Shown in pieces: positions 28,749 through 49,361 of a stretch of 64,000 nucleotides of DNA. The notes under the pieces are model-generated. The model was not told where the DNA came from, searched no databases, and was given only the letters and a program-made list of their open reading frames with translations. Numbering within the stretch: position 1 is the first letter of the stretch; each line of letters begins with the position of its first letter. This DNA is from a virus (Duplodnaviria > Heunggongvirae > Uroviricota > Caudoviricetes). The stretch spans positions 32,001 through 96,000 of IMG/VR virus record IMGVR_UViG_2718218135_000001, one strand, 5' to 3'. The position numbers and the translations under genes were made by a program.

Positions 28749-29450
28749 ATGGGTATTAAAGCTGATATTCAGAGCTTGTCGCCCTCCGCGCTCATTGAAC
28801 TGTTCGAACTTGATATGTCGAACACCACCTCTGGAGGCAAGCTATATTTCCACGCTGGTACAAACGAGCTGATGGAGCCGGTTGTTTGGCAAGGCGTGTC
28901 CTACGAACCGTGGCCAATCAAAGCGTCAGGCTTTGATAAGACTGGTCAGGGTACTTTGCCTCGTCCAAAAATCCAGGTCTCCAACTTTGCCGGAACTGTC
29001 TCCGCTGAAGTTCAGGCAAACGACGATCTGGTAGGTTGCCGCATCATCCGCAAGATGACACTGGCGCGTTTTCTCGACGAGGCCAACTTCAAAGACGGTA
29101 ATCCAACCGCAGATCCAAATCAGCACTTCCCGGATGAGATGTGGTTCATCGAACAGAAGACTCTCGAAACCCATGAGGTCGTCGAGTTTGAGCTGTCGAG
29201 TGTGTTCGATCTGATGGGCGTGCAGCTGCCGTACCGCCAGATCATCAAAAACACCTGCCCGTGGAAATACCGCGGCCCAGAGTGCGGCTACACCGGCCCA
29301 TATTTCGACAAAAACAACCAGCAAACCACCATGTCTGGCGCGGATTACTGCACGAAACGCTACGACTCATGCAACGCACGGCGCAACTACTTTGCCAATG
29401 GCGTAATCCACTTTGGCGGGTTCATTGGGGCAACGCGTTATGGGCAATAG
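28749..29450 (+). CDS. minor tail protein (lambda gpL-like)
   Basis: conserved Cys cluster CPWKYRGPECGYTG as in lambda L. Confidence 0.8.
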   Translation: MGIKADIQSLSPSALIELFELDMSNTTSGGKLYFHAGTNELMEPVVWQGVSYEPWPIKASGFDKTGQGTLPRPKIQVSNFAGTVSAEVQANDDLVGCRIIRKMTLARFLDEANFKDGNPTADPNQHFPDEMWFIEQKTLETHEVVEFELSSVFDLMGVQLPYRQIIKNTCPWKYRGPECGYTGPYFDKNNQQTTMSGADYCTKRYDSCNARRNYFANGVIHFGGFIGATRYGQ

Positions 29451-29478
29451 AGTATTCCCGGAGCTTGGTTCGGACGTT

Positions 29479-30237
29479 ATGCAGGAAATCTATCTGACAG
29501 CCATTAAACGTTACCCGAACGAAGCGTGTGGCTTTCTGGTGCGTACCACTGGCGAGAAATATCGCTTCATTGAAGCCCGGAACGTGTCGGAGCACCCGGA
29601 AAACACGTTTGTTATGCACGCTGACGACATTATCACTGCGGAAGATGCGGGAGACGTGGTTGCCATCTGGCACTCCCATACTGACGAATCTGCTGATGCG
29701 TCAGACGCCGACCGCGCCGGATGTGAGGCAACGGAAGTTCCGTGGCTGATTCTGGCTGTTCGCAAGAACATCGAGGGCGATGCGCCATTTCACTTCAGTG
29801 AAATGAATGTGATCACCCCAGACGGCTTTGAGATGCCTTATCTGGGCCGACCCTATGTGTTCGGCGTCTTCGACTGCTGGATGCTTTGTCGCGACTATCT
29901 GAAACGAGAGTTTGGTGTCGAGCTGAACCCGAATGCGCATCTGCATATTCCGTTATGGTACACGGGTGATGATGACATTCTCGACCATAACTATCGAAAT
30001 GAAGGGCTTGTGCGTCTTGCGCCAGGGACGGAGCCGCAGCGCGGCGATGTCTTCTTCATCCAGTACGGGAAAATGCCTGATCACTGCGCGGTGTATATCG
30101 GAGACGGCATGATCCTGCATCACCAAATCGACCGCCTGAGTTGTCGCGCTTATTACGGCGGCATGTACCAGAAACATACGACGCACCATCTGCGTCACAG
30201 AGACTTACTCAAGGGTGATGAAAAGTGTCTGAGTTAG
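29479..30237 (+). CDS. tail assembly protein (lambda gpK-like; JAB/MPN plus NlpC/P60-type)
   Basis: HSHTDES metal motif and DCWMLCRDY Cys motif; alternative start 29440. Confidence 0.75.
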   Translation: MQEIYLTAIKRYPNEACGFLVRTTGEKYRFIEARNVSEHPENTFVMHADDIITAEDAGDVVAIWHSHTDESADASDADRAGCEATEVPWLILAVRKNIEGDAPFHFSEMNVITPDGFEMPYLGRPYVFGVFDCWMLCRDYLKREFGVELNPNAHLHIPLWYTGDDDILDHNYRNEGLVRLAPGTEPQRGDVFFIQYGKMPDHCAVYIGDGMILHHQIDRLSCRAYYGGMYQKHTTHHLRHRDLLKGDEKCLS

Positions 30238-30835: not shown

Positions 30836-33800
30836 ATGGAACAGTTCAAGAAGAAAAAGTTACCGCTGTTTATTGCCGGTGCGGGTGGTAAAAAAAGTAG
30901 CAAAAGCTCCAGCCGTACACCGGTTGAAGCCGACGATACCGTAAATTCTCGTGCAATGGCCGCTATCCTCGATCTTCTTGGGGAAGGGGTAATTGGCGGC
31001 TTAGTAAATGGCGCAAGATCTATTTTTATCGACGATCTGCCGATTGTAAATGAAGACGGTTCCTCCAACTTCAGCGGAATCACATGGGATTTTCGCGACG
31101 GTTCACAAGACCAGACTCCAATGTCTGGCTTTGATTTCGTTGAAACGCCTAAATCCGTCAATATCCAGTTAAAAAAAACGCATTATGTAACGGTTTCAAT
31201 CGATAACGATGAAGCTGATCGGGTTCGTGTCATCATGAAGTTTCCTTCTTTGCGAAGCATAGATAAAAAAACTGGTGACACGAACGGTACGACTGTTGAG
31301 TACAAGTTCCAGATAGCAAATGGCGACTCAACATTTGTAGATGTGGTCGCGGAAGGTGAAAAAAGCGTTGGCATTAAGCTAACAGCAAAGAAGACCGGCG
31401 TTTATTACCGTAGCTATGAGCTGAAGCTGCCTAAGCCTGGACGAGCATACAAGGTTCGTGTAGTCCGTATTACCGATGATAACAGTAGCCAGTATCTCTA
31501 TAACGATACATGGGTGGATTCAATCGGGGAAATTGTCGATACACCGATGAACTATCCAAACTCTGTTTTGGTTGGATTGAAGGTAAACTCTGAGCAATTC
31601 GGCAGCACCATGCCATCTCGCTCTTATCTGGTGCGTGGCCTAAAAATTCGAGTACCTTCAAACTATAACGAGTCCAGTAACACTTACGCTGGGGTATGGG
31701 ATGGCACTTTTAAGCTGTTGTCTTCTTCGAACCCCGCGTGGATTCTCTTTGATTTGCTGACCAATGCTCGATATGGCCTTGGTCAGTATGTGTCGGAATC
31801 TATGATTGACCTTGGCCAGTTGTACCAGATTGGTCGATATTGTGACGAAGAGGTCGATGATGGCTTTGGTGGCAAAGAGAAACGCTTTGCAATCAATACG
31901 CAGATCACCAGTCGACAGGACGCATACCGGCTAATTCAGGATATTGCTGGAGCATTCCGCGGCATGGTGTTTTGGGCTGGTGGGATGGTTAACATCATGC
32001 AGGATAGCCCATCAGATCCGGTAATGATGTTTACCAACTCTAACGTCAAAGATGGATTGTTTACCTATAAAGGTTCTGCGCGTAAAGATCGCCCATCCGT
32101 TGCGCTCGTAACCTACAACAACAAGGAGGACGGTTATAAGCAAAACATCGAGTACGTTGAAGATCAGGACGCAATGCGCCGTTATGGTGAGCGTAAGACA
32201 GAAGTCGTAGCATTTGGCTGTACAAGCCGAGGGCAGGCTCACCGAGTTGGTTTGTGGCTTTTGTATACCGCCAGAATGGAGTCGGATGTAATTACATTTA
32301 CTGCCGGCTTAGACGCGTCATTTTTGATGCCTGGTGAAACCGTTCTGATTCAGAACAAATATCGCGCAGGCAAACGTAACTCAGGTCGAATTGTGGCGTT
32401 TACCAAAAACAGCGTCACACTCGATGCGCCTGTGTCGTTAGCCAAAGGCGGCTGCTTTATTCGAATACTGAATCAGGAAGGCAAAATCGTTGAACGCGAT
32501 GCTCTTGAAACTGGCGAAAATATAACAAAAGTTACGTTTTCAAAAGCCCTGTCGTCAGCGGAAACGCCTGTTTTGAACGGTGTCTGGACAATTACAGAAC
32601 CAGATCTCGAACCTATGCGCGTTCGCATCGTTAACATCGCTCAGGGGGAAACGTCGGGTAGCTTTGACATCACCGCTGTTGAAAACAATCCGTCTAAATA
32701 TGAGGCGATCGACAATGGTGCAACGCTTATCCCGCAGAATACGACGGTATTGGACCCGACTTACTCCAAGCCGTCTAATTTGCAAATCACTGAAGGGACT
32801 TATCTCTCAAGCCCGGGCAACCTGTCAGTAAAACTGACTGCAACATGGGAAGGGAAATCTCCAGAGTATTGGATCAGTTGGCGACGTTCTGATGCAAACA
32901 ATGTATCGAACTGGCAATCGACGCGTGTAACCGAAGAGCAATACGAAATCGTTAATGTCGCGGAGAATGGACGCTACGACTTCCAACTGTATGCGGTTTC
33001 ATTCAACGGTAAAAAAACAGAAATTATCAGCACCGTCTACAAAGTTCAGGGGACGATGACGCCGCCGGATGCACCGACTGCACTGACGGCCGTGGGCGAC
33101 TACCGCAACGTGATTCTGAATTGGGTTAACCCGGACTCAATCGACCTCGATCACATCAACGTGTATGCATCCCGGACCAACAACCTGGACACTGCAAAAC
33201 TAATTGCCGAAGCAGCCAGTACCACCTTTACGCACGCAGGTCTTGGAGATAGCGAAACTTGGTTCTATTGGGTTCGTGCAGCAAACAAACGCGGAATGTT
33301 GAGCCAGCCGAACTCCAATTTGGGCACTGAGGCGATGACGAAAGATGTTCTGTCTTTCCTGACCGGGAAGATCACTTCTTCGGAATTGGGGCAGGAACTG
33401 CTTGAGGAAATCGACACCAAAGCCTCGCAGGAAGCCGTCGACGCAATCAACAAGCAGATGGAAGAAAGCCTGAAAAGCCTTGATGACAAATTTACTGAGA
33501 CCGATCAACGGATTGAAGAAGCCCAAAACGTTCTTAGAACGGAAGTTTCTAATACTGCCAGCAAGGTGGAAGAGGCTCTTAAGGAGGTTGAAAACTCAAA
33601 TGCCGCATTAATTCAGTTGAAGGAAACTGTTTCAGAGCAGGACAAGGTCGTTGCTGGAGCGGTTGAGGCCGCGAATGCAGCACTGGACAATTCATCGGCT
33701 TTAGTTGCGGAGGAACGTGAGGCACGAGTCGAAGGCGACTTGGCGAACGCGAAAGAAATCGAGGCAATGAAGTCAACTGTAGATAGCAGTTTGGCCACCA

Positions 33801-35504: not shown

Positions 35505-35548
35505 TTGTGTGGGCAGGGACGCCCACACTTCAAGGAGTGAAAAAGAAC

Positions 35549-38500
35549 ATGTGGTACAGGGAAGGCACTGTTACATTTACAAAAGGAAGCGACACAATAT
35601 CAGGCATCGGAACACGTTGGAATTTGACCGAAAACGGCGTGTTACCGGGCATGATTGTCATTGGTCCTGACAATAAGTTGTATGAGGTCAAGCGCGTAAC
35701 CAGTGATAAGGTCATTGTTCTCTCAGAACCTTATACCGGCGAAACTCAATCTAAAGTTCCGTGCCGAATCATTACGACCTATGAAGGCGACTTAACTCAG
35801 TTTAGTGCGCGCTTTACTGCACTAATGTCGCGTATGTCGGCTGATTCCAAGTCCATGCGCAGTTGGTTGACCGCTCTGGATGATGTGACAATCGAGCGTG
35901 AAGACGGTACAGAAGTGACCGTTAAGCCGCTAATGCAGATCGTCAACGAGCATAACGAAAACGTTGAGTGGTATAAAAATAACACCGATGCGATTGAGGC
36001 CGCTGGAGACAAAGCTCGGGAGGCGGCGGCCAGTGCTGTCGCTGCGGCAGAAAGTGCCAACACTGCTGTAGAAAAAGCCTCTCAGGCATCTCAAAGTGCA
36101 TCCGCTGCGGTATCTTCACAAAGTGCGGCGAGTGAGAGTGCAGCTGCTGCGGAAAAATCTGAAACAAACGCAGAAGCGGCAAAAGAAGCGGCAGCAGAAT
36201 CAGCATCTGTGGCGTCGACTAAAGCATCGGAGGCAGCCACATCAGCGTCCAGTGCCTCTGCATCTAAGGATGCGGCTAAATTATCAGAGACTAACGCTTC
36301 ATCGAGTGCAAACGCGGCAGCATCATCAGCTACAGAAGCTGCAAATTCATGTAAGGCAGCAAAAGCATCAGAGACAAACGCAAAAGCGTCTGAAGCTGCT
36401 GCCGAACAGAGTGCATTGTCTGCAAACAGTTCGAAATCTGCGGCAGAAACGTCAGCGAGCGCGGCCTCAGTAAGCGCGGATAGTGCTTCATCAAGTGCAA
36501 CGTCGGCAGAAAAGTCTGCGGAAAGCGCTTCGTTATCTGCGGCAAATGCCACCGCTAAAGCGACAGAGGCGACGAAACAGGCAACAGCTGCGGAAAAGTC
36601 AGCAGAGGCGGCAAAATCTTCTGAAACCAATGCAAAGACTTCAGAAGACAATGCCGCTGCTTCTAAGGAGACAGCAGCCGAATCTGCAAGCTCTGCCTCT
36701 GTTTCAGCTTCCTCGGCGTCATCTTCAAAAGATGAGGCCGCTCGCCAGGCGTCAGCGGCAGCAGAGAGTGCGACAACGGCATCAACGAAGGCGACGGAAG
36801 CGGCAGACAGTGCGACGGAGGCTGCGCAGAGCAAAAATGCGGCAGAATCCGCGGCAACACGCTCTGAGACAGCGGCAAAACGAGCTGAGGATATTGCATC
36901 CGCCGTGGCGCTTGAGGATGCGAGCACGACGAAAAAGGGGGTAGTACAGCTCAGCAGTGCGACCAACAGCACGTCTGAAACGCTGGCGGCAACGCCAAAA
37001 GCCGTTAAGGCCGCGTATGACCTGGCTAACGGGAAATACACCGCACAGGATGCAACGACAGCACAGAAAGGGATAATCCAGCTAAGCAGCGCGACCAACA
37101 GCACGTCTGAAACGCTTGCCGCGACACCAAAGGCAGTAAAAGCAGCCAATGACAATGCTGAGAAACGTCTGCAGAAAGATCAGAACGGTGCGGATATCCC
37201 TGGCAAAGATACCTTTACGAAAAATATTGGTGCCTGCCGTGCCTTCGGTGGGTCAGTAAGCACAACAACAGGAAACTGGACGACTGCACAGTTTATCGAG
37301 TGGCTGGATTCTCAGGGAGCATTTAACCATCCATACTGGATGTGCAAGGGTTCCTGGTCTTATGGCAATAATAAAATCATTACTGATACTGACTGCGGTA
37401 ATATTCATCTCGCCGGAGCTGTCATTGAAGTAATGGGGATAAAGTCAGCGATGACGATCCGCATTACCACACCGACCACCTCCACTGGTGGTGGAACAAC
37501 TAACGCCCAGTTTACCTATATTAATCACGGAACAGATTATTCACCTGGCTGGCGAAGGGACTATAACTCCAGAAATAAGCCAACGGCATCAGAGATCGGG
37601 GCGTTACCGTCAGGTGGAACAGCAGTATCATCAGTTAATCTGGCTTCAAAAGGTCGGGTAACCGCGCTGACAGACAATACGCAGGGGGCAGCAGGTCTTG
37701 AGTTATACGAGGTGTATAACAACGGATATCCAACAGCGTATGGAAATATCATTCACCTGAAAGGGATGACAGCCGTTGGCGAAGGTGAGTTACTCATCGG
37801 CTGGAGTGGTACAAGCGGTGCTCATGCTCCGGCATTTATTCGTTCACGACGGGATACGACCGACGCAAACTGGTCGCCGTGGGCGCAGCTTTACACCTCG
37901 GCTCATCCTCCTGCAGAGTTTTATCCAGTCGGTGCACCAATCCCGTGGCCATCAGATACCGTTCCGTCTGGCTATGCCCTGATGCAGGGGCAGACTTTTG
38001 ACAAATCTGCATACCCGAAACTTGCAGTTGCTTATCCGTCAGGCGTGATCCCTGATATGCGTGGCTGGACGATTAAGGGCAAGCCCGCCAGTGGTCGGGC
38101 CGTATTATCTCAGGAACAGGACGGCATTAAATCGCACACCCACAGCGCCAGCGCATCCAGTACGGATTTGGGGACGAAAACCACATCGTCGTTTGATTAC
38201 GGAACCAAATCCACGAATAACACCGGGGCGCATACCCATAGTATTAGCGGGACCGCAAATAGTGCCGGTGCGCACCAACACAAGAGTTCCGGTGCATTTG
38301 GTGGCACGAACACGAGCATTTTCCCTAATGGTTATACCGCGATTTCAAATCTAAGCGCGGGGATTATGAGCACAACAAGCGGTAGTGGCCAGACTCGTAA
38401 TGCAGGGAAGACATCATCAGATGGTGCTCATACCCACTCGCTGTCCGGCACAGCTGCATCTGCAGGTGCACACGCACATACTGTCGGTATTGGTGCTCAT

Positions 38501-38614
38501 ACGCACTCGGTTGCGATTGGCTCACATGGACACACCATCACCGTTAACGCTGCTGGTAACGCGGAAAACACCGTCAAAAACATCGCATTTAACTATATTG
38601 TGAGGCTTGCATAA
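35549..38614 (+). CDS. side tail fibre protein
   Basis: two copies of tail-fibre repeat [21 protein letters not shown]; long A/S/E-rich shaft; C-terminal HxH motifs. Confidence 0.8.
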
Positions 38615-39195
38615 TGGCATTCAGAATGAGTGAACAACCACGGACCATAAAAATTTATAATCTGCTGTCCGGAACTAATGAATTTATTGGTGAAGGTGAT
38701 GCATATATTCCGCCTCATACAGGTCTGCCAGCAAACAGTACCGATATTGCACCGCCAGATATTCCGGCAGGCTTCGTGGCTGTTTTCAACAGTGATGAGG
38801 CATCGTGGCATCTCGTTGAAGATCATCGGGGAAAAACCGTCTATGACGTGGCTTCCGGCGACGCGTTATTTATTTCTGAACTCGGTCCGTTACCGGAAAA
38901 TGTTACCTGGTTATCACCGGATGGGGAATATCAGAAGTGGGACGGCACATCCTGGGAGAAGGATGAGGAAACAGAAAAATTGTTTCAGGTACGGGAAGCG
39001 GAAGAAACAAAAAAAAGTCTGATGCAGGTAGCCAGCGAGCACATTGCGCCACTTCAGGATGCTGTAGATTTGGAGATTGCAACGGAGGAAGAAGCATCGT
39101 TGCTGACTGCATGGAAGAAGTATAGAGTTTTATTGAACCGCATTGACACATCAACGGCACCGGATATTGACTGGCCAACAATACCAGCAGAGTAA
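38614..39195 (+). CDS. tail fibre assembly protein (Tfa-like)
   Basis: 193 aa directly after fibre gene, TAATG overlap. Confidence 0.75.
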
Positions 39196-39244
39196 GGGGC
39201 AGATTATATCTGCATTATTAACAACGATTAGTTTGCAAGATATA

Positions 39245-39267
39245 TAGTAGGTAAGTACATACCTACT
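39245..39267. promoter_or_regulatory. TAAGTA-N-TACTTA palindromic box
   Basis: tagtaggtaagtacatacctact after Tfa, before lysis cassette. Confidence 0.5.
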
Positions 39268-39328
39268 GCAAATGGTTAAAATATGATATAAACACGCCAT
39301 CCCGATTTGACTTTTCATGGAGGAAAAC

Positions 39329-39652
39329 ATGTCGAACGAGATGGCGGGAGTCACAACTGAACAGGTTGAGCGCATCGTCTCAATCGTTGCTCGGGAAGTC
39401 GTAGGCAAATTAGGTAAAGAAATACGCGAGGAAATTGGTCAGGAGGTCAATGACCAGCTCAAAACCTACTTTGGCGATATGACGCCCGCACAACACAGCA
39501 TTCAGCACTCCAATCTGGACAAACTTCTTAACCGGCTCGACACCATCTCCAGTGGGTTCTTTGGCGGCATTGTTTCGAAACTAACGTCGTTCATTATTAC
39601 CGTACTGCTTTTAGGATTGGCCGCGTATGGCGTAAAAAATGGATTGCAATAA
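39329..39652 (+). CDS. small membrane protein, possible holin
   Basis: single C-terminal hydrophobic segment; GGAGGA RBS; alternative start 39317. Confidence 0.4.
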   Translation: MSNEMAGVTTEQVERIVSIVAREVVGKLGKEIREEIGQEVNDQLKTYFGDMTPAQHSIQHSNLDKLLNRLDTISSGFFGGIVSKLTSFIITVLLLGLAAYGVKNGLQ

Positions 39653-39665
39653 CAGGAGATCAAGG

Positions 39666-40358
39666 ATGAAAACTCCGAGAGGCATTCGTAATAACAACCC
39701 CGGTAATCTTGATAAAGGAGCGCCGTGGCAGGGCTTAGTCAACAACTCTTCAGAACCGCGCTTCTGCACGTTTAAAGACCCCGTGTGGGGGATTCGGGCA
39801 TTGGCAGTGACACTCATTACTTACCACGACAAGCGCCGCGCAAAAGATGGCTCCAGCATTGATACGATCCGCGAAGTCATCGAACGCTGGGCGCCTCCAC
39901 ATGAGAACAACACTTTGGCTTATGTGAACGAGGTATCCAAAGCCGTTGGAGTAGCACCAGATATGATTATCGATCTGCATGACTACGAGACCTTAAGACC
40001 GCTGGTAGAGGCGATCATTAGACATGAAAATGGCCGAGGTCCGCTGAAAACCCCCAATAGCTGGTATACACCAGAACTTATCGAAGAAGGGCTGCGACGT
40101 GCCGGCATTGTCAAACCGGTAAAGGCTGTAAAAGCCGTTCCTGTAACAAAAGAAACCACAGGTGCTACAGTCACTGCAGGTATTGGCCTTGCACAAATTG
40201 CTGACGTTATGCCTCAAGTTTCTGCCGCAATGGATAAAGCGCAAGGCAATATCTCCAGTGGAGATACGGTACGCATCATCTTTGGCGTAGCTACCATTCT
40301 TGTGGCAGCATTCATTGCCTGGTCCCAGGTTCGCAAGCACCAGAAAGGATTAGTATAA
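39666..40358 (+). CDS. lysis-cassette protein with C-terminal membrane anchor (possible cell-wall hydrolase)
   Basis: GIRNNNPGNL motif, C-terminal TM helix; function not resolved. Confidence 0.4.
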   Translation: MKTPRGIRNNNPGNLDKGAPWQGLVNNSSEPRFCTFKDPVWGIRALAVTLITYHDKRRAKDGSSIDTIREVIERWAPPHENNTLAYVNEVSKAVGVAPDMIIDLHDYETLRPLVEAIIRHENGRGPLKTPNSWYTPELIEEGLRRAGIVKPVKAVKAVPVTKETTGATVTAGIGLAQIADVMPQVSAAMDKAQGNISSGDTVRIIFGVATILVAAFIAWSQVRKHQKGLV

Positions 40359-40360
40359 GT

Positions 40361-40612
40361 ATGTTCGACGGCCTGTTGTTCAAAATGAAATCCGCTTTGT
40401 TCACTCTGGCCGCCGTCATTCTAGTCCTTGTCGGCGCATACTCCTATGGCGGGTATATGGCCAGACGCAGTATGGAAGAGAAAGAACGGCGGGAAGATAA
40501 CAAGCGTCTTCAAAGCACAGTGGAAGTGGTGAATGAGACGAACAGTGAAATACGTCAGAAAGATGCTTCTGCCATTCATCGTGAGCTGCATGATAAGTGG
40601 GTGCGTAATTAA
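40361..40612 (+). CDS. i-spanin (Rz-like)
   Basis: N-terminal TM helix plus charged coiled-coil region; embedded lipoprotein ORF. Confidence 0.5.
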   Translation: MFDGLLFKMKSALFTLAAVILVLVGAYSYGGYMARRSMEEKERREDNKRLQSTVEVVNETNSEIRQKDASAIHRELHDKWVRN

Positions 40613-40748
40613 GCCACAGACCACCAGCGTGTTGTTCTGCGATGGCGCTGAACCTATTTATATCAGCAATGACGATGTAATGACCGAAGAAACCGAACGC
40701 CAAATCCTTTTTCACAATACGATGGGAGAGAGAGTTTGCGGTTGGTGA
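40563..40748 (+). CDS. o-spanin lipoprotein (Rz1-like)
   Basis: signal peptide with lipobox ISGC; overlaps Rz-like 3' end in another frame. Confidence 0.5.
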   Translation: MLLPFIVSCMISGCVIKPQTTSVLFCDGAEPIYISNDDVMTEETERQILFHNTMGERVCGW

Positions 40749-40780
40749 TGTCGAAGTTCCCCTCAAATGAGGGGGACACA

Positions 40781-41302
40781 TTATTCTTCGAACAATTTTT
40801 CGATAGATTTTGTTGGATAGAACAAAGAACGATCGTTGTTACCAACCAGCTGGATAAAGCCCAAACTTTTATAAAACGCCCTAGCTTTATCGTTCAACGC
40901 CTCAACGAAAAGCCCATGAATGCCTACCGCAAGAGATGCATTGTACACAACACGCATTGCGTGAGTTACAAGCATTGAGCCAAACCCCTGACCTTGAAGA
41001 GATTTGTCCAAAGCCAGTCTGCCTAAAGTGATACTTGGGACATTCCGATAAGGCACTTTCTTTTGCTGACTCTTTGAAGGTAAGGTTTCTTTCTCAAAGC
41101 AGCTGCCTGACAAAGTGTAATAACCTAATACCTTTGGTATTTCTTCTTTAGTGCAAAGCACATAAGCGCGAAGAATTTTTCCTTCATGCTGTCTTTTTAA
41201 GTGGTTGGTCAAAAATGCGTTTAGTGACTCTTCGCCGCAATCAAAACCGTTTAGATCATAATCTTTCTCTCCAGAGAAAATCTCGATCGTCGTATTGCTC
41301 AC
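40781..41302 (-). CDS. GNAT-family acetyltransferase toxin (TacT-like)
   Basis: GNAT motifs; paired with upstream small antitoxin. Confidence 0.7.
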   Translation of the reverse strand: MSNTTIEIFSGEKDYDLNGFDCGEESLNAFLTNHLKRQHEGKILRAYVLCTKEEIPKVLGYYTLSGSCFEKETLPSKSQQKKVPYRNVPSITLGRLALDKSLQGQGFGSMLVTHAMRVVYNASLAVGIHGLFVEALNDKARAFYKSLGFIQLVGNNDRSLFYPTKSIEKLFEE

Positions 41303-41309
41303 GAGTAAA

Positions 41310-41579
41310 TTACTCCATGCTTTTCAGACGATTGGCAGCTCGTTTCAGCTTGTCGTTCGGTGCCGGAGGATTGCTTATAGCATCCATAACCAGATTCCAG
41401 GACTCTTCACTTAGAACCAGTCTACGGTGTTGCTCTATCACCTTCACGGCACGTTCGGATGCACTGCTAACCATGAACTGGGTAATGCTCTGGTTAGACA
41501 TTGCGGCAGCTTCCTCGATGATGCTTTTATCGTCATCGGTTAATCTCAAATCGATGCGCTGCTTTTTCAGTGCGGACAT
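41310..41579 (-). CDS. RHH antitoxin (TacA/DUF1778-like)
   Basis: 89 aa upstream partner of the GNAT toxin. Confidence 0.7.
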   Translation of the reverse strand: MSALKKQRIDLRLTDDDKSIIEEAAAMSNQSITQFMVSSASERAVKVIEQHRRLVLSEESWNLVMDAISNPPAPNDKLKRAANRLKSME

Positions 41580-41898: not shown

Positions 41899-42564
41899 AT
41901 GACCAAGATCATTGTGGTTGGCGGCACAAAAGGCGGCCCAGGCAAATCTACCGTTGCCCAGCAAATTGCGGTATGTCTCAAAGTTAAAAAGAAAAAGAAG
42001 GTTCACGTCACCGATATCGATATCCAGCGCACCACGACCAGCTGGTGTGAAGACCGTCGCCAGAACGAAGATCTTGAACTGATCCCGTTCGCTTATGTGC
42101 AGGACGACATCGTCAAACATCTTAAATCGCTTCAGGGGCGAACTGATTATGTAGTGGTAGATGCTGGTGGCTTTGACTCCGAAATTCAGCGTCTGGCGAT
42201 GCTTATGGCTGATGTAATCATCATCCCGCTGCGCCCTAAACGTCGTGATTTGAAATCTCTGCGTGATATCGACCCGATTATCGACAACGTTCGCAATGTG
42301 AACGAGAAAGTTAAGATCCGCGCGGTAATAAACCAGTGTCCGTCATTGCCTTCCCAGGTATCACGTATTCTGGCCGCGAAGGAAATTGTCGAAACTTTCG
42401 GCATCGAGGCTGCGCCGGTCAATCTGTACAACCGTAACGTTTATGACGATGCGGAAGAGGCAGGTCGTTCTATCTTTGAAATGACTGGCGCTGAACGCGA
42501 TAAGAAGGCAGAAGCCGAGTTCGAAGAGTTTGTAGATTACATCTTGAGTCTGGAGGAAGAATAA
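41899..42564 (+). CDS. parA: ParA-family partition ATPase (small, type Ib-like)
   Basis: deviant Walker A GGTKGGPGKST; 221 aa. Confidence 0.85.
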   Translation: MTKIIVVGGTKGGPGKSTVAQQIAVCLKVKKKKKVHVTDIDIQRTTTSWCEDRRQNEDLELIPFAYVQDDIVKHLKSLQGRTDYVVVDAGGFDSEIQRLAMLMADVIIIPLRPKRRDLKSLRDIDPIIDNVRNVNEKVKIRAVINQCPSLPSQVSRILAAKEIVETFGIEAAPVNLYNRNVYDDAEEAGRSIFEMTGAERDKKAEAEFEEFVDYILSLEEE

Positions 42565-48340: not shown

Positions 48341-49351
48341 TTAGTCGTAGGATACGGCAAATATCGCCTGGCCTTGAACTTCCCCAGGCTGTAAAGCTTC
48401 CTCTTTCACGCGAACGTATTTTGCGGTAATCGGGAAGATGTACTGTTCCTGAATAGCCGCCATTTTAGGTAATCTGTTCATCAGGGTATCGCCCAGCTTT
48501 AACGGTGTCGTTGCATTACCATTGTAAATCTGGAACCCTACACCCTTAGCACCATCGGACAATGTATTTTTCAATATTGTTCCACTATCATCCCACACAC
48601 CACGCTCAACTTTAAAAGTCACTGGATTAGTCGTGACGTTATAGACACTATCGCAATTTAGGACCAGATCTACAGAACCTGATTTTGAGTTATTGGCAGA
48701 TAGCATCTCACTTATCGTTGTTTCTGGTATTCTTATTTCGTAAGTCGGTTGCGAGAAACGACAGGTTGTGGGTTTGTGTTTAACAGTAATGGTTAGTTTT
48801 TGTTCGTAAGCATCGCCTTTATTTAACAACCCCAATAAATTGCACAATATCCATGAAAAAATATTTGAACTGCATTGATTATCAGATAAAAAGTTACCCG
48901 CTGGCTTTTTTAATTCGAATGAATCCCCCTCTACCGCTTCACCATGATCACTTCTATATGTAGTTGGTGGTATATATGAGGCCGTTAACTTCAGTTGTTT
49001 ATTATTAATGGTATCAGCAACAGAATAGGTTTTAGGCGACAGAAGCGAACCACTCGTTTCTACAGGAAATCCATCAGCCTCAAGCTTTAATTTAATAAAA
49101 ATAGACTTATTGCTGGAGCCATCTTTCATTTCAACAATATAGTCATCTAACGTTGTTGCAAAATACATCTTATCCCCCCTCGAGTTACATTCATAAGATC
49201 CTTGCAGGTTGGGATTAAAACTTACTATTGTTGAATCCCTTGTTAAGTCCAGTGTAATTGGTTGAGTTGCTGTCCAAGTTCCCTTAGGGGTACATTTCGC
49301 CTGCCCAAAAAATGGAATAATCAACAAAAACAAAAACCAATATTTCTTCAT
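48341..49351 (-). CDS. fimbrial adhesin / minor subunit
   Basis: signal peptide MKKYWFLFLLIIPFFGQA; last gene of chaperone-usher operon. Confidence 0.6.
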   Translation of the reverse strand: MKKYWFLFLLIIPFFGQAKCTPKGTWTATQPITLDLTRDSTIVSFNPNLQGSYECNSRGDKMYFATTLDDYIVEMKDGSSNKSIFIKLKLEADGFPVETSGSLLSPKTYSVADTINNKQLKLTASYIPPTTYRSDHGEAVEGDSFELKKPAGNFLSDNQCSSNIFSWILCNLLGLLNKGDAYEQKLTITVKHKPTTCRFSQPTYEIRIPETTISEMLSANNSKSGSVDLVLNCDSVYNVTTNPVTFKVERGVWDDSGTILKNTLSDGAKGVGFQIYNGNATTPLKLGDTLMNRLPKMAAIQEQYIFPITAKYVRVKEEALQPGEVQGQAIFAVSYD

Positions 49352-49361
49352 AAAAAATCCT

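Follow-up and report, generated by a model that had tools for sequence, protein, structure and literature searches.

The question raised by this locus is which of its genes, if any, encodes the endolysin. The locus is a four-gene lysis cassette at positions 39329–40748 (+) of a 64,000-nt stretch of the IMG/VR virus record IMGVR_UViG_2718218135_000001 (Caudoviricetes; positions 32,001 to 96,000 of the record), hereafter the window, which covers 64 kb of a ca. 107-kb element. The initial annotation of this DNA held that the cassette lacked an obvious endolysin, and that a 230-aa protein encoded in it may be a membrane-tethered cell-wall hydrolase or a non-canonical holin. The region containing the cassette (39200–40800) shows 99.8 % identity with ca. 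107-kb non-mobilisable IncFIB plasmids from E. coli and E. fergusonii and 80–83 % identity with phages SSU5, Cyrano and CMS-2020a, indicating that the window is part of an SSU5-like phage-plasmid. We conclude with high confidence that 39329–40748 is the late lysis operon of this phage-plasmid, and that its second gene codes for an endolysin of the family of ORF39 from Hafnia phage Enc34 and M4Lys from Salmonella phage BSPM4. The genes and signals of the cassette are the following:

39319–39323, + strand: Shine-Dalgarno sequence GGAGG, 5 nt before the ATG at 39329, read from the sequence.
39329–39652, + strand: first gene, small tail-anchored membrane protein, 107 aa.
39654–39658, + strand: Shine-Dalgarno sequence AGGAG, serving the ATG at 39666.
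39666–40358, + strand: predicted endolysin of the Enc34 ORF39/M4Lys type, 230 aa, with a PHA02564-type N-terminal catalytic domain and a C-terminal membrane module.
39666–40115, + strand: enzymatically active domain (EAD) of the endolysin, residues 1–150, with GIRNNNPGNL at residues 6–15, Trp75, Tyr86, and Glu121 in IIRHENG.
40155–40244, + strand: weakly hydrophobic, Gly/Ala/Ser/Thr-rich proximal helix of the "two-helix transmembrane domain (TMD)" of the endolysin, residues 164–193.
40275–40331, + strand: strong C-terminal transmembrane (TM) helix of the endolysin, residues 204–222 (Kyte-Doolittle hydropathy over 19 residues, KD19, 2.15), followed by the basic tail RKHQKGLV.
40361–40612, + strand: i-spanin (Rz-like), 83 aa, N-terminal TM, PHROG 1026.
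40533–40748, + strand: o-spanin (Rz1-like) lipoprotein, 71 aa, lipobox ISGC, PHROG 1275.
40756–40777, + strand: terminator-like GC-rich hairpin from a consensus scan only, with a 9-bp stem, 6 GC pairs and a weak T tail.

The four genes form a tight operon, with gaps of 13 nt between genes 1 and 2 and of 2 nt between genes 2 and 3, and with genes 3 and 4 overlapping. This layout agrees in all its parts with that proposed initially, namely a one-TM small protein, a 230-aa protein with GIRNNNPGNL and a C-terminal TM, and overlapping Rz/Rz1-like spanins with an ISGC lipobox. A longer open reading frame (ORF) from the ATG at 39639 was rejected for the endolysin, because AGGAG serves the ATG at 39666 and the orthologues of SSU5 and Cyrano are 230 aa long; the ATG at 39317 was likewise rejected as the start of the first gene, from the position of the Shine-Dalgarno sequence and the lengths of the orthologues. 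The consensus scan for promoters and terminators found no sigma-70-like promoter 5′ of the cassette and a weak hairpin upstream of it, at 39246–39267. The hairpin at 40756–40777 is directly 3′ of the o-spanin stop codon, between the stop codons of the cassette and of a convergent GNAT toxin gene.

The 230-aa protein matches PHROG 873, annotated as endolysin, with an E value of 3e-86, and a phmmer search aligned its residues 3–152 with the Enc34 endolysin's catalytic domain (PDB 7Q47; E = 4.5e-56, 60 % identity). Over its full length, it is 59 % identical to Enc34 ORF39, 56 % to the Redjac endolysin, 90 % to SSU5_027 (89–90 % across the Cyrano and SSU5 proteins) and ca. 54 %, over 99 % of the length, to "lysis protein A" of the Chi group (iEPS5, Chi, Siskin; M4Lys), which has the same architecture. 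The alignment with Enc34 and Redjac extends through the PVTKE linker, the proximal helix, an SSGD turn and the distal TM, and the Enc34 protein differs by two insertions, KKNGV and SPEDYD, which are not in the window protein. In Enc34, Glu131 was identified as catalytic, together with Trp79 and Tyr95 (Cernooka et al., 2022; PMC8943055). These residues align with E121, W75 (in ERWAPP) and Y86 of the 230-aa protein, all three of which are invariant across 36 homologues, down to 54 % identity.

The predicted structure points in the same direction. An AlphaFold2 (AF2) model built on the alignment of homologues shows an all-helical EAD, with helices at residues 39–56, 68–75, 83–94, 107–122 and 136–145, and a predicted local distance difference test (pLDDT) score of ca. 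80–96 over residues 31–150 and of 55–78 over the first 30 residues. In a Foldseek search against the PDB, the sole strong match of this model was again 7Q47 (E = 1e-15, TM-score of 0.82 normalised to the target), and the fold is of the all-helical type that resembles the α-lobe of lysozyme. These results indicate that the N-terminal ca. 150 residues fold into a peptidoglycan glycosidase made up of helices, with a distant similarity to the lysozyme α-lobe. The Enc34 authors regard PHA02564 proteins as GH73-like glycosidases, and showed that the EAD of ORF39 is muralytic on E. coli, P. aeruginosa and H. alvei with a permeabilised outer membrane (PMC8943055); additionally, M4Lys removes GlcNAc from muropeptides, which indicates an N-acetylglucosaminidase (Bai et al., 2020; PMC7143992). 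As judged from its sequence, the cassette encodes two overlapped spanins along with a GH73-like glycosidase that is tethered to the membrane and retains all of its active site. The first of the two initial proposals, a membrane-tethered cell-wall hydrolase, is thus supported by the 60 % identity to 7Q47, the conserved catalytic Glu, Trp and Tyr, and the homologous membrane module.

Why, then, did the endolysin appear to be missing? Scans with Pfam and NCBIfam models returned nothing above threshold for any of the four proteins of the cassette, and in a large protein collection the close relatives of the 230-aa protein lack Pfam domains and go by the names "hypothetical protein" or "membrane protein". 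In plasmid NZ_CP056969.1, the Prokaryotic Genome Annotation Pipeline (PGAP) named the endolysin "membrane protein" and genes 1 and 3 "hypothetical", and did not call gene 4, the o-spanin. Since neither Pfam nor NCBIfam provides a model for the Enc34-type catalytic domain, PGAP and RefSeq label the endolysin "membrane protein" or "hypothetical", and it was this lack of matches, along with the PGAP name, that made it look absent. The initial statement that no endolysin is obvious is consequently true for Pfam, NCBIfam and PGAP and untrue for PHROGs, the PDB and the GenBank annotations of phages; the apparent lack is an artefact of the missing models.

The initial annotation had also contemplated an endolysin encoded elsewhere, and the window, as only a part of the element, leaves room for one; moreover, of the ten window ORFs scanned, the only other one whose product has a peptidoglycan-peptidase-like domain is that at 29413–30237 (+), for a tail protein with NlpC/P60 (PF00877) and JAB (PF14464) domains. 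In such a case the 230-aa product would be an accessory membrane protein. This is extremely improbable, because the 230-aa protein matches a proven endolysin (7Q47) directly in both sequence and structure. Furthermore, SSU5_027 is the sole endolysin, and no other lysin is annotated, in positions 1–100,000 of the 103,299 bp of SSU5 (RefSeq annotation), and the complete plasmid pRHB41-C15_2 (106,982 bp, 99.8 % identical in this region) likewise has no second lysin among its annotations, be it a lysozyme, transglycosylase or amidase. Pfam scans of the tape measure protein, the gpJ-like tail protein and the cargo ORFs of the window found no muralytic domain. The NlpC/P60 and JAB protein itself is encoded amid genes whose annotations read minor tail protein L, tail assembly protein or phage tail protein, and we take it to be a tail-tip assembly protein of the lambda gpK type.

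A catalytic domain of this kind is not exclusive to lysis proteins, and the 230-aa protein could in principle be a virion-associated hydrolase acting on peptidoglycan during DNA entry. The domain is widespread without the TMD, and of 810 matching phage records only 182 align with 80 % or more of the length of the query; its carriers include DMS3-like Pseudomonas phages and, among virion proteins, the N-terminus of the K1F-type internal protein gp16, the "tail injection transglycosylase" of D6, "structural protein P5" of PM2 and the core protein Gp29 of phage E1004 (PDB 9VVP). The CDD name of PHA02564 is indeed "virion protein" (PMC7143992). Nevertheless, the 230-aa gene stands apart from the structural module, tightly coupled to the gene of the small membrane protein on one side and to the spanin genes on the other; its membrane anchor is more in keeping with residence in the inner membrane than in the virion, and homologues of the same architecture lyse from within (PMC7143992). 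Together with the lack of an alternative annotated endolysin in SSU5 (within the positions covered) and in pRHB41-C15_2, this makes a role in entry instead of lysis very unlikely.

The endolysin reading extends to the C-terminal membrane module. The proximal segment (residues 164–193), whose hydrophobic stretch covers residues 164–189, has a KD of ca. 1.0–1.07 and a GAST (Gly, Ala, Ser, Thr) fraction of 0.54; the AF2 model places a helix at residues 176–193 with low confidence, and the segment is conserved with Enc34 and Redjac. Being only weakly hydrophobic, it is a putative membrane-spanning helix. The distal TM has a mean column identity of 0.67 across the 36 homologues and the module as a whole is nearly as conserved as the EAD (0.61–0.67 versus 0.72). 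The C-terminal 75 residues align with Enc34 and Redjac and match 166 phage records; among the 40 of these that were listed, every annotated gene belongs to the endolysin family, under the names endolysin, lysis protein A, lysin A, virion or structural protein, or hypothetical, and there was no sign that the module had been shuffled onto other catalytic domains.

Signal-arrest-release (SAR) endolysins, such as Lyz of P1 and R of phage 21, carry an anchor helix at the N-terminus. The principle is probably similar here, in that a Gly/Ala-rich helix of weak hydrophobicity keeps a muralytic domain at the inner membrane until the latter loses its energised state. In contrast to SAR endolysins, the anchor of the window protein is C-terminal, its first ca. 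30 residues (MKTPRGIRNNNPGNLDKGAPWQG...) contain no hydrophobic segment that could serve as a SAR helix or engage Sec, and lysis by M4Lys is insensitive to azide (PMC7143992). The 230-aa protein is not a member of the SAR class, which the Enc34 authors also discuss (PMC8943055). The TM occupies the last ca. 25 residues, so that it leaves the ribosome only at termination and its insertion must be post-translational; because moving a folded N-terminal domain of 17 kDa across the membrane post-translationally is implausible, we favour an N-in topology in which the basic tail also lies inside and the two segments probably form a hairpin, or else the proximal helix is interfacial and only the distal one crosses the membrane.

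The other two conserved genes are those for the spanins. The i-spanin has a TM at residues 6–24, matches PHROG 1026 ("Rz-like spanin", E = 4e-22) and shows 25 % identity to Enc34 ORF40 (E = 8e-5); the o-spanin matches PHROG 1275 (also "Rz-like spanin", E = 3e-25), has the lipobox I-S-G-C with Cys24, and is 43 % identical to Enc34 ORF41 (E = 1e-21). The o-spanin gene, for which there is an alternative start at 40563, begins within the i-spanin gene in another frame, with an overlap of 80 nt, and continues for 136 nt beyond it. An N-terminal TM with a periplasmic helical domain, a lipobox Cys and an out-of-frame overlap with an extension are the features of a two-component spanin of overlapped architecture, the type to which this pair belongs. 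The spanins of SSU5 were already catalogued in a spanin census, which assigns its o-spanin to the Chi o-spanin family (PMC6139136).

Comparison with known cassettes shows a common core and a different first gene. In Enc34, as in the window, the gene of an endolysin with the same EAD, catalytic Glu/Trp/Tyr, linker and two-helix C-terminal module is preceded by that of a small membrane protein and followed by overlapping genes for Rz/Rz1, although Enc34 is a Chi-like siphovirus of ca. 60 kb and the window belongs to a ca. 107-kb SSU5-like phage-plasmid. The Chi/Enc34 and window cassettes share three of their four lysis genes, since the endolysin and both spanins are homologous and the first gene is not. 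The orthologues in sequenced SSU5-like phages are SSU5_027 ("endolysin") and CYRAN_23 of Cyrano ("Endolysin"), both of 230 aa and within the same four-gene cassette, annotated as holin, endolysin, Rz and Rz1. The endolysin system was already known: SSU5 and Cyrano carry the annotation, and Enc34 and BSPM4 have provided its biochemical and structural characterisation. It was in phage Siskin that this architecture first drew attention, as what might be a novel endolysin class, with a predicted N-in/C-in topology (PMC6498227). When the literature was searched for later mechanistic studies of endolysins anchored at the C-terminus, nothing was added to the papers from 2019–2022.

Taking these data together, we propose the following course of lysis. 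The conserved PVTKE linker would join the EAD to the membrane module, consisting of the weakly hydrophobic helix, the strong TM helix and the basic cytoplasmic tail, which would tether the enzyme to the inner membrane, where it would accumulate in a harmless form. At a programmed time, the inner membrane would be permeabilised or depolarised by the first gene product, by the endolysin TMDs, possibly oligomerised, upon reaching a critical concentration, or by both. The catalytic domain would then gain access to the murein and, finally, the overlapping i-spanin and o-spanin would disrupt the outer membrane. We infer the topology, the trigger and the role assigned to the first gene in this scheme.

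Several observations weigh against the endolysin reading, or against parts of it. The muralytic activity, bond specificity and TMD-dependent lysis attributed to the 230-aa protein would be those of homologues with 54–59 % identity. The pLDDT of the C-terminal module is low (39–65). The EAD has neither a signal nor a SAR sequence that would take it across the inner membrane, a difficulty that the Enc34 authors raise for the whole family (PMC8943055). Likewise, the predicted topologies conflict, being N-in/C-in for Siskin (PMC6498227) and N-out/C-in for M4Lys (PMC7143992). Lastly, the first gene is unlike that of Chi/Enc34 or any tested holin, and in distant relatives its family adjoins a separate multi-TM holin.

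An alternative possibility is that the endolysin needs no holin. Its membrane module would then itself be the lesion device, the protein being in effect a holin-endolysin fusion, and the first gene would be a timing regulator or antiholin; this would alter the mechanism and leave the identity of the 230-aa protein as it is. On its own, M4Lys can lyse E. coli, an effect that persists in azide and is abolished by truncation of the C-terminal TMD, whereas the upstream ORF_37 is dispensable and its co-expression slightly delays lysis (PMC7143992). Similarly, full-length Enc34 ORF39 is toxic and its EAD alone is not (PMC8943055). The strong conservation of the C-terminal module of the window protein, and its richness in small residues (G207, A214, A218), are as expected for helix-helix packing. 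Against this, holin-independent lysis was seen only under overexpression from strong promoters, and the Enc34 authors warn that it could be artefactual (PMC8943055); in addition, the TMD of M4Lys by itself is bacteriostatic, not lytic (PMC7143992). The M4Lys assays also concern a protein from outside the SSU5 group, and the results with ORF_37, of the Chi-type "class IV holin", are not transferable to the SSU5-type first gene, because the two are unrelated. Moreover, a small membrane protein encoded immediately 5′ of the endolysin occupies the classical position of a holin. On balance, we consider lysis driven by the endolysin alone possible but doubtful. The second initial proposal, that of a non-canonical holin, does not describe the primary identity of the 230-aa protein, but it does echo the need for the TMD in the holin-independent lysis by M4Lys (PMC7143992).

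Is the first gene product, then, the holin? Its orthologues are annotated as "holin" or "putative holin" in Cyrano and SSU5, with 92–94 % identity, and its size (107 aa), single TM and position beside the endolysin fit a holin. It consists of a hydrophilic, helical N-terminal domain of ca. 80 aa and a single hydrophobic segment at the extreme C-terminus (residues 81–99, KD19 peak of 2.11), followed by a tail of only ca. 6–8 residues. Conversely, in the holins of Enc34/Chi the N-terminus is short, the TM comes soon after it, at residues ca. 22–42, and a coil of 70 aa makes up the C-terminal part. We detected no homology between the window protein and the Enc34/Chi holin (BLAST E = 0.12; hhalign probability of 0.2 %), and no Pfam or NCBIfam match that would relate it to a verified holin family; its only PHROG match is to phrog_5093, of "unknown function" (E = 1e-66). 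An AF2 model of four helices was uninformative (pLDDT of 47). A possible dual-start motif (M1/M5, MSNEM) was rejected because Met5 is not conserved in the phrog_5093 family.

An exhaustive profile search among 1.84 billion representative proteins identified just 62 relatives at E ≤ 1e-3. The full-length relatives sampled are of ca. 100–140 aa and share the same architecture, with invariant F48, G49, H56, H60 and D71 before the TM. Among deposited phages, the family is found only in the 12 SSU5-like records. A scan of viral contigs had first yielded only near-identical SSU5-like loci, and a profile made from distant relatives then identified in IMG/VR four distant members (L094–L097), all heading lysis cassettes in ca. 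100-kb phage contigs, with genes for tail-fibre-like or tail-fibre-assembly-like proteins just upstream in three of the four. In L096 and L097 the genes after that of the phrog_5093 member encode a separate holin with 3–4 TMs (phrog_8226), then a phrog_669 endolysin, then spanins. Those of L095 encode an endolysin of the M15 peptidase type (phrog_894, PF08291) and then a 1-TM protein, and in L094 a small protein with 2–3 TMs follows. The arrangements of L095, L096 and L097 also favour an endolysin that acts without a holin in the SSU5 cassette. As the phrog_5093 family coexists with a separate holin, the "holin" label in SSU5 and Cyrano reflects no more than position.

Other loci illustrate the variety of partners upstream of this type of endolysin. 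A Providencia SSU5-like element has the same pair of first gene and endolysin as the window, and a Pasteurella prophage encodes, upstream of the endolysin homologue, an 85-aa protein with no clear TM. In an Alcaligenaceae prophage (GCA_013416345.1), a 99-aa protein encoded at 2205–2504 of the locus, directly upstream of an Enc34-type endolysin, has a C-terminal TM preceded by ca. 75 hydrophilic residues; BLAST and hhalign detected no homology between it and the first gene product of the window, and the two may represent a convergent partner architecture.

Judging from these gene neighbourhoods, the phrog_5093 family is a recurrent component of lysis cassettes, and the first gene product could be a holin or a regulator of lysis timing. 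A bolder view, which we advance tentatively and hold to be rather unlikely, is that it represents a new class of lysis-cassette component and not a conventional holin, either a timing regulator/antiholin or a holin of new topology, partnering membrane-tethered endolysins in SSU5-like elements and multi-TM holins in other ca. 100-kb phages. If true, membrane passage in the SSU5 cassette would depend on the TMD of the endolysin itself. This uncharacterised first gene is the sole residual novelty of the cassette.

The genes surrounding the cassette, and the cargo of the element, are the following:

35507–38614, + strand: tail fibre, 1035 aa, upstream of the lysis cassette.
38614–39195: tail-fibre assembly protein, directly before the four-gene cassette.
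40781–41302 and 41310–41579, − strand: GNAT toxin and DUF1778/RHH antitoxin pair, convergent, immediately 3′ of the lysis cassette.
41899–42564: ParA, beyond the toxin/antitoxin pair.
48341–49471, − strand: 376-aa fimbrial/adhesin-like protein of a Yeh-like fimbrial operon.
49362–51854, − strand: usher of the Yeh-like fimbrial operon.
51866–52600, − strand: PapD chaperone of the Yeh-like fimbrial operon.
52602–53150, − strand: YehD-like subunit of the Yeh-like fimbrial operon.
53291–54106, − strand: IS3-type transposase, adjoining the fimbrial operon.

As in the window, Cyrano has a GNAT toxin/antitoxin pair 3′ of the cassette, and names the toxin KacT. SSU5 differs in having three extra membrane/Cor genes upstream of the lysis cassette, unrelated hypothetical genes downstream of it, and a different distal tail fibre. 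The tail fibre of the window has a long, Ala/Ser-rich centre of low complexity and a C-terminal Gly/His-rich repeat (GAHTHS / GAHAHT / GSHGHT). The Yeh-like chaperone-usher fimbrial operon (48341–54106, −) is carried as cargo in the phage-plasmid; it is not at the corresponding position in SSU5 or pRHB41-C15_2 and is common to 16 plasmid records at ≥99 % identity, of 37 that match, mostly non-mobilisable plasmids of E. coli. Outside the window, SSU5-like elements contain genes annotated as "lysozyme inhibitor LprI family protein" (SSU5_101, and 85290–85988 of NZ_CP056969.1).

With a crystal structure and biochemistry available for the endolysin family, and the orthologues of SSU5 and Cyrano already annotated, the identification of this endolysin carries little weight as a discovery. 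It does hold a lesson for annotation, because the endolysin is mislabelled in hundreds of clinically common SSU5-like phage-plasmids, in which the o-spanin is left uncalled.

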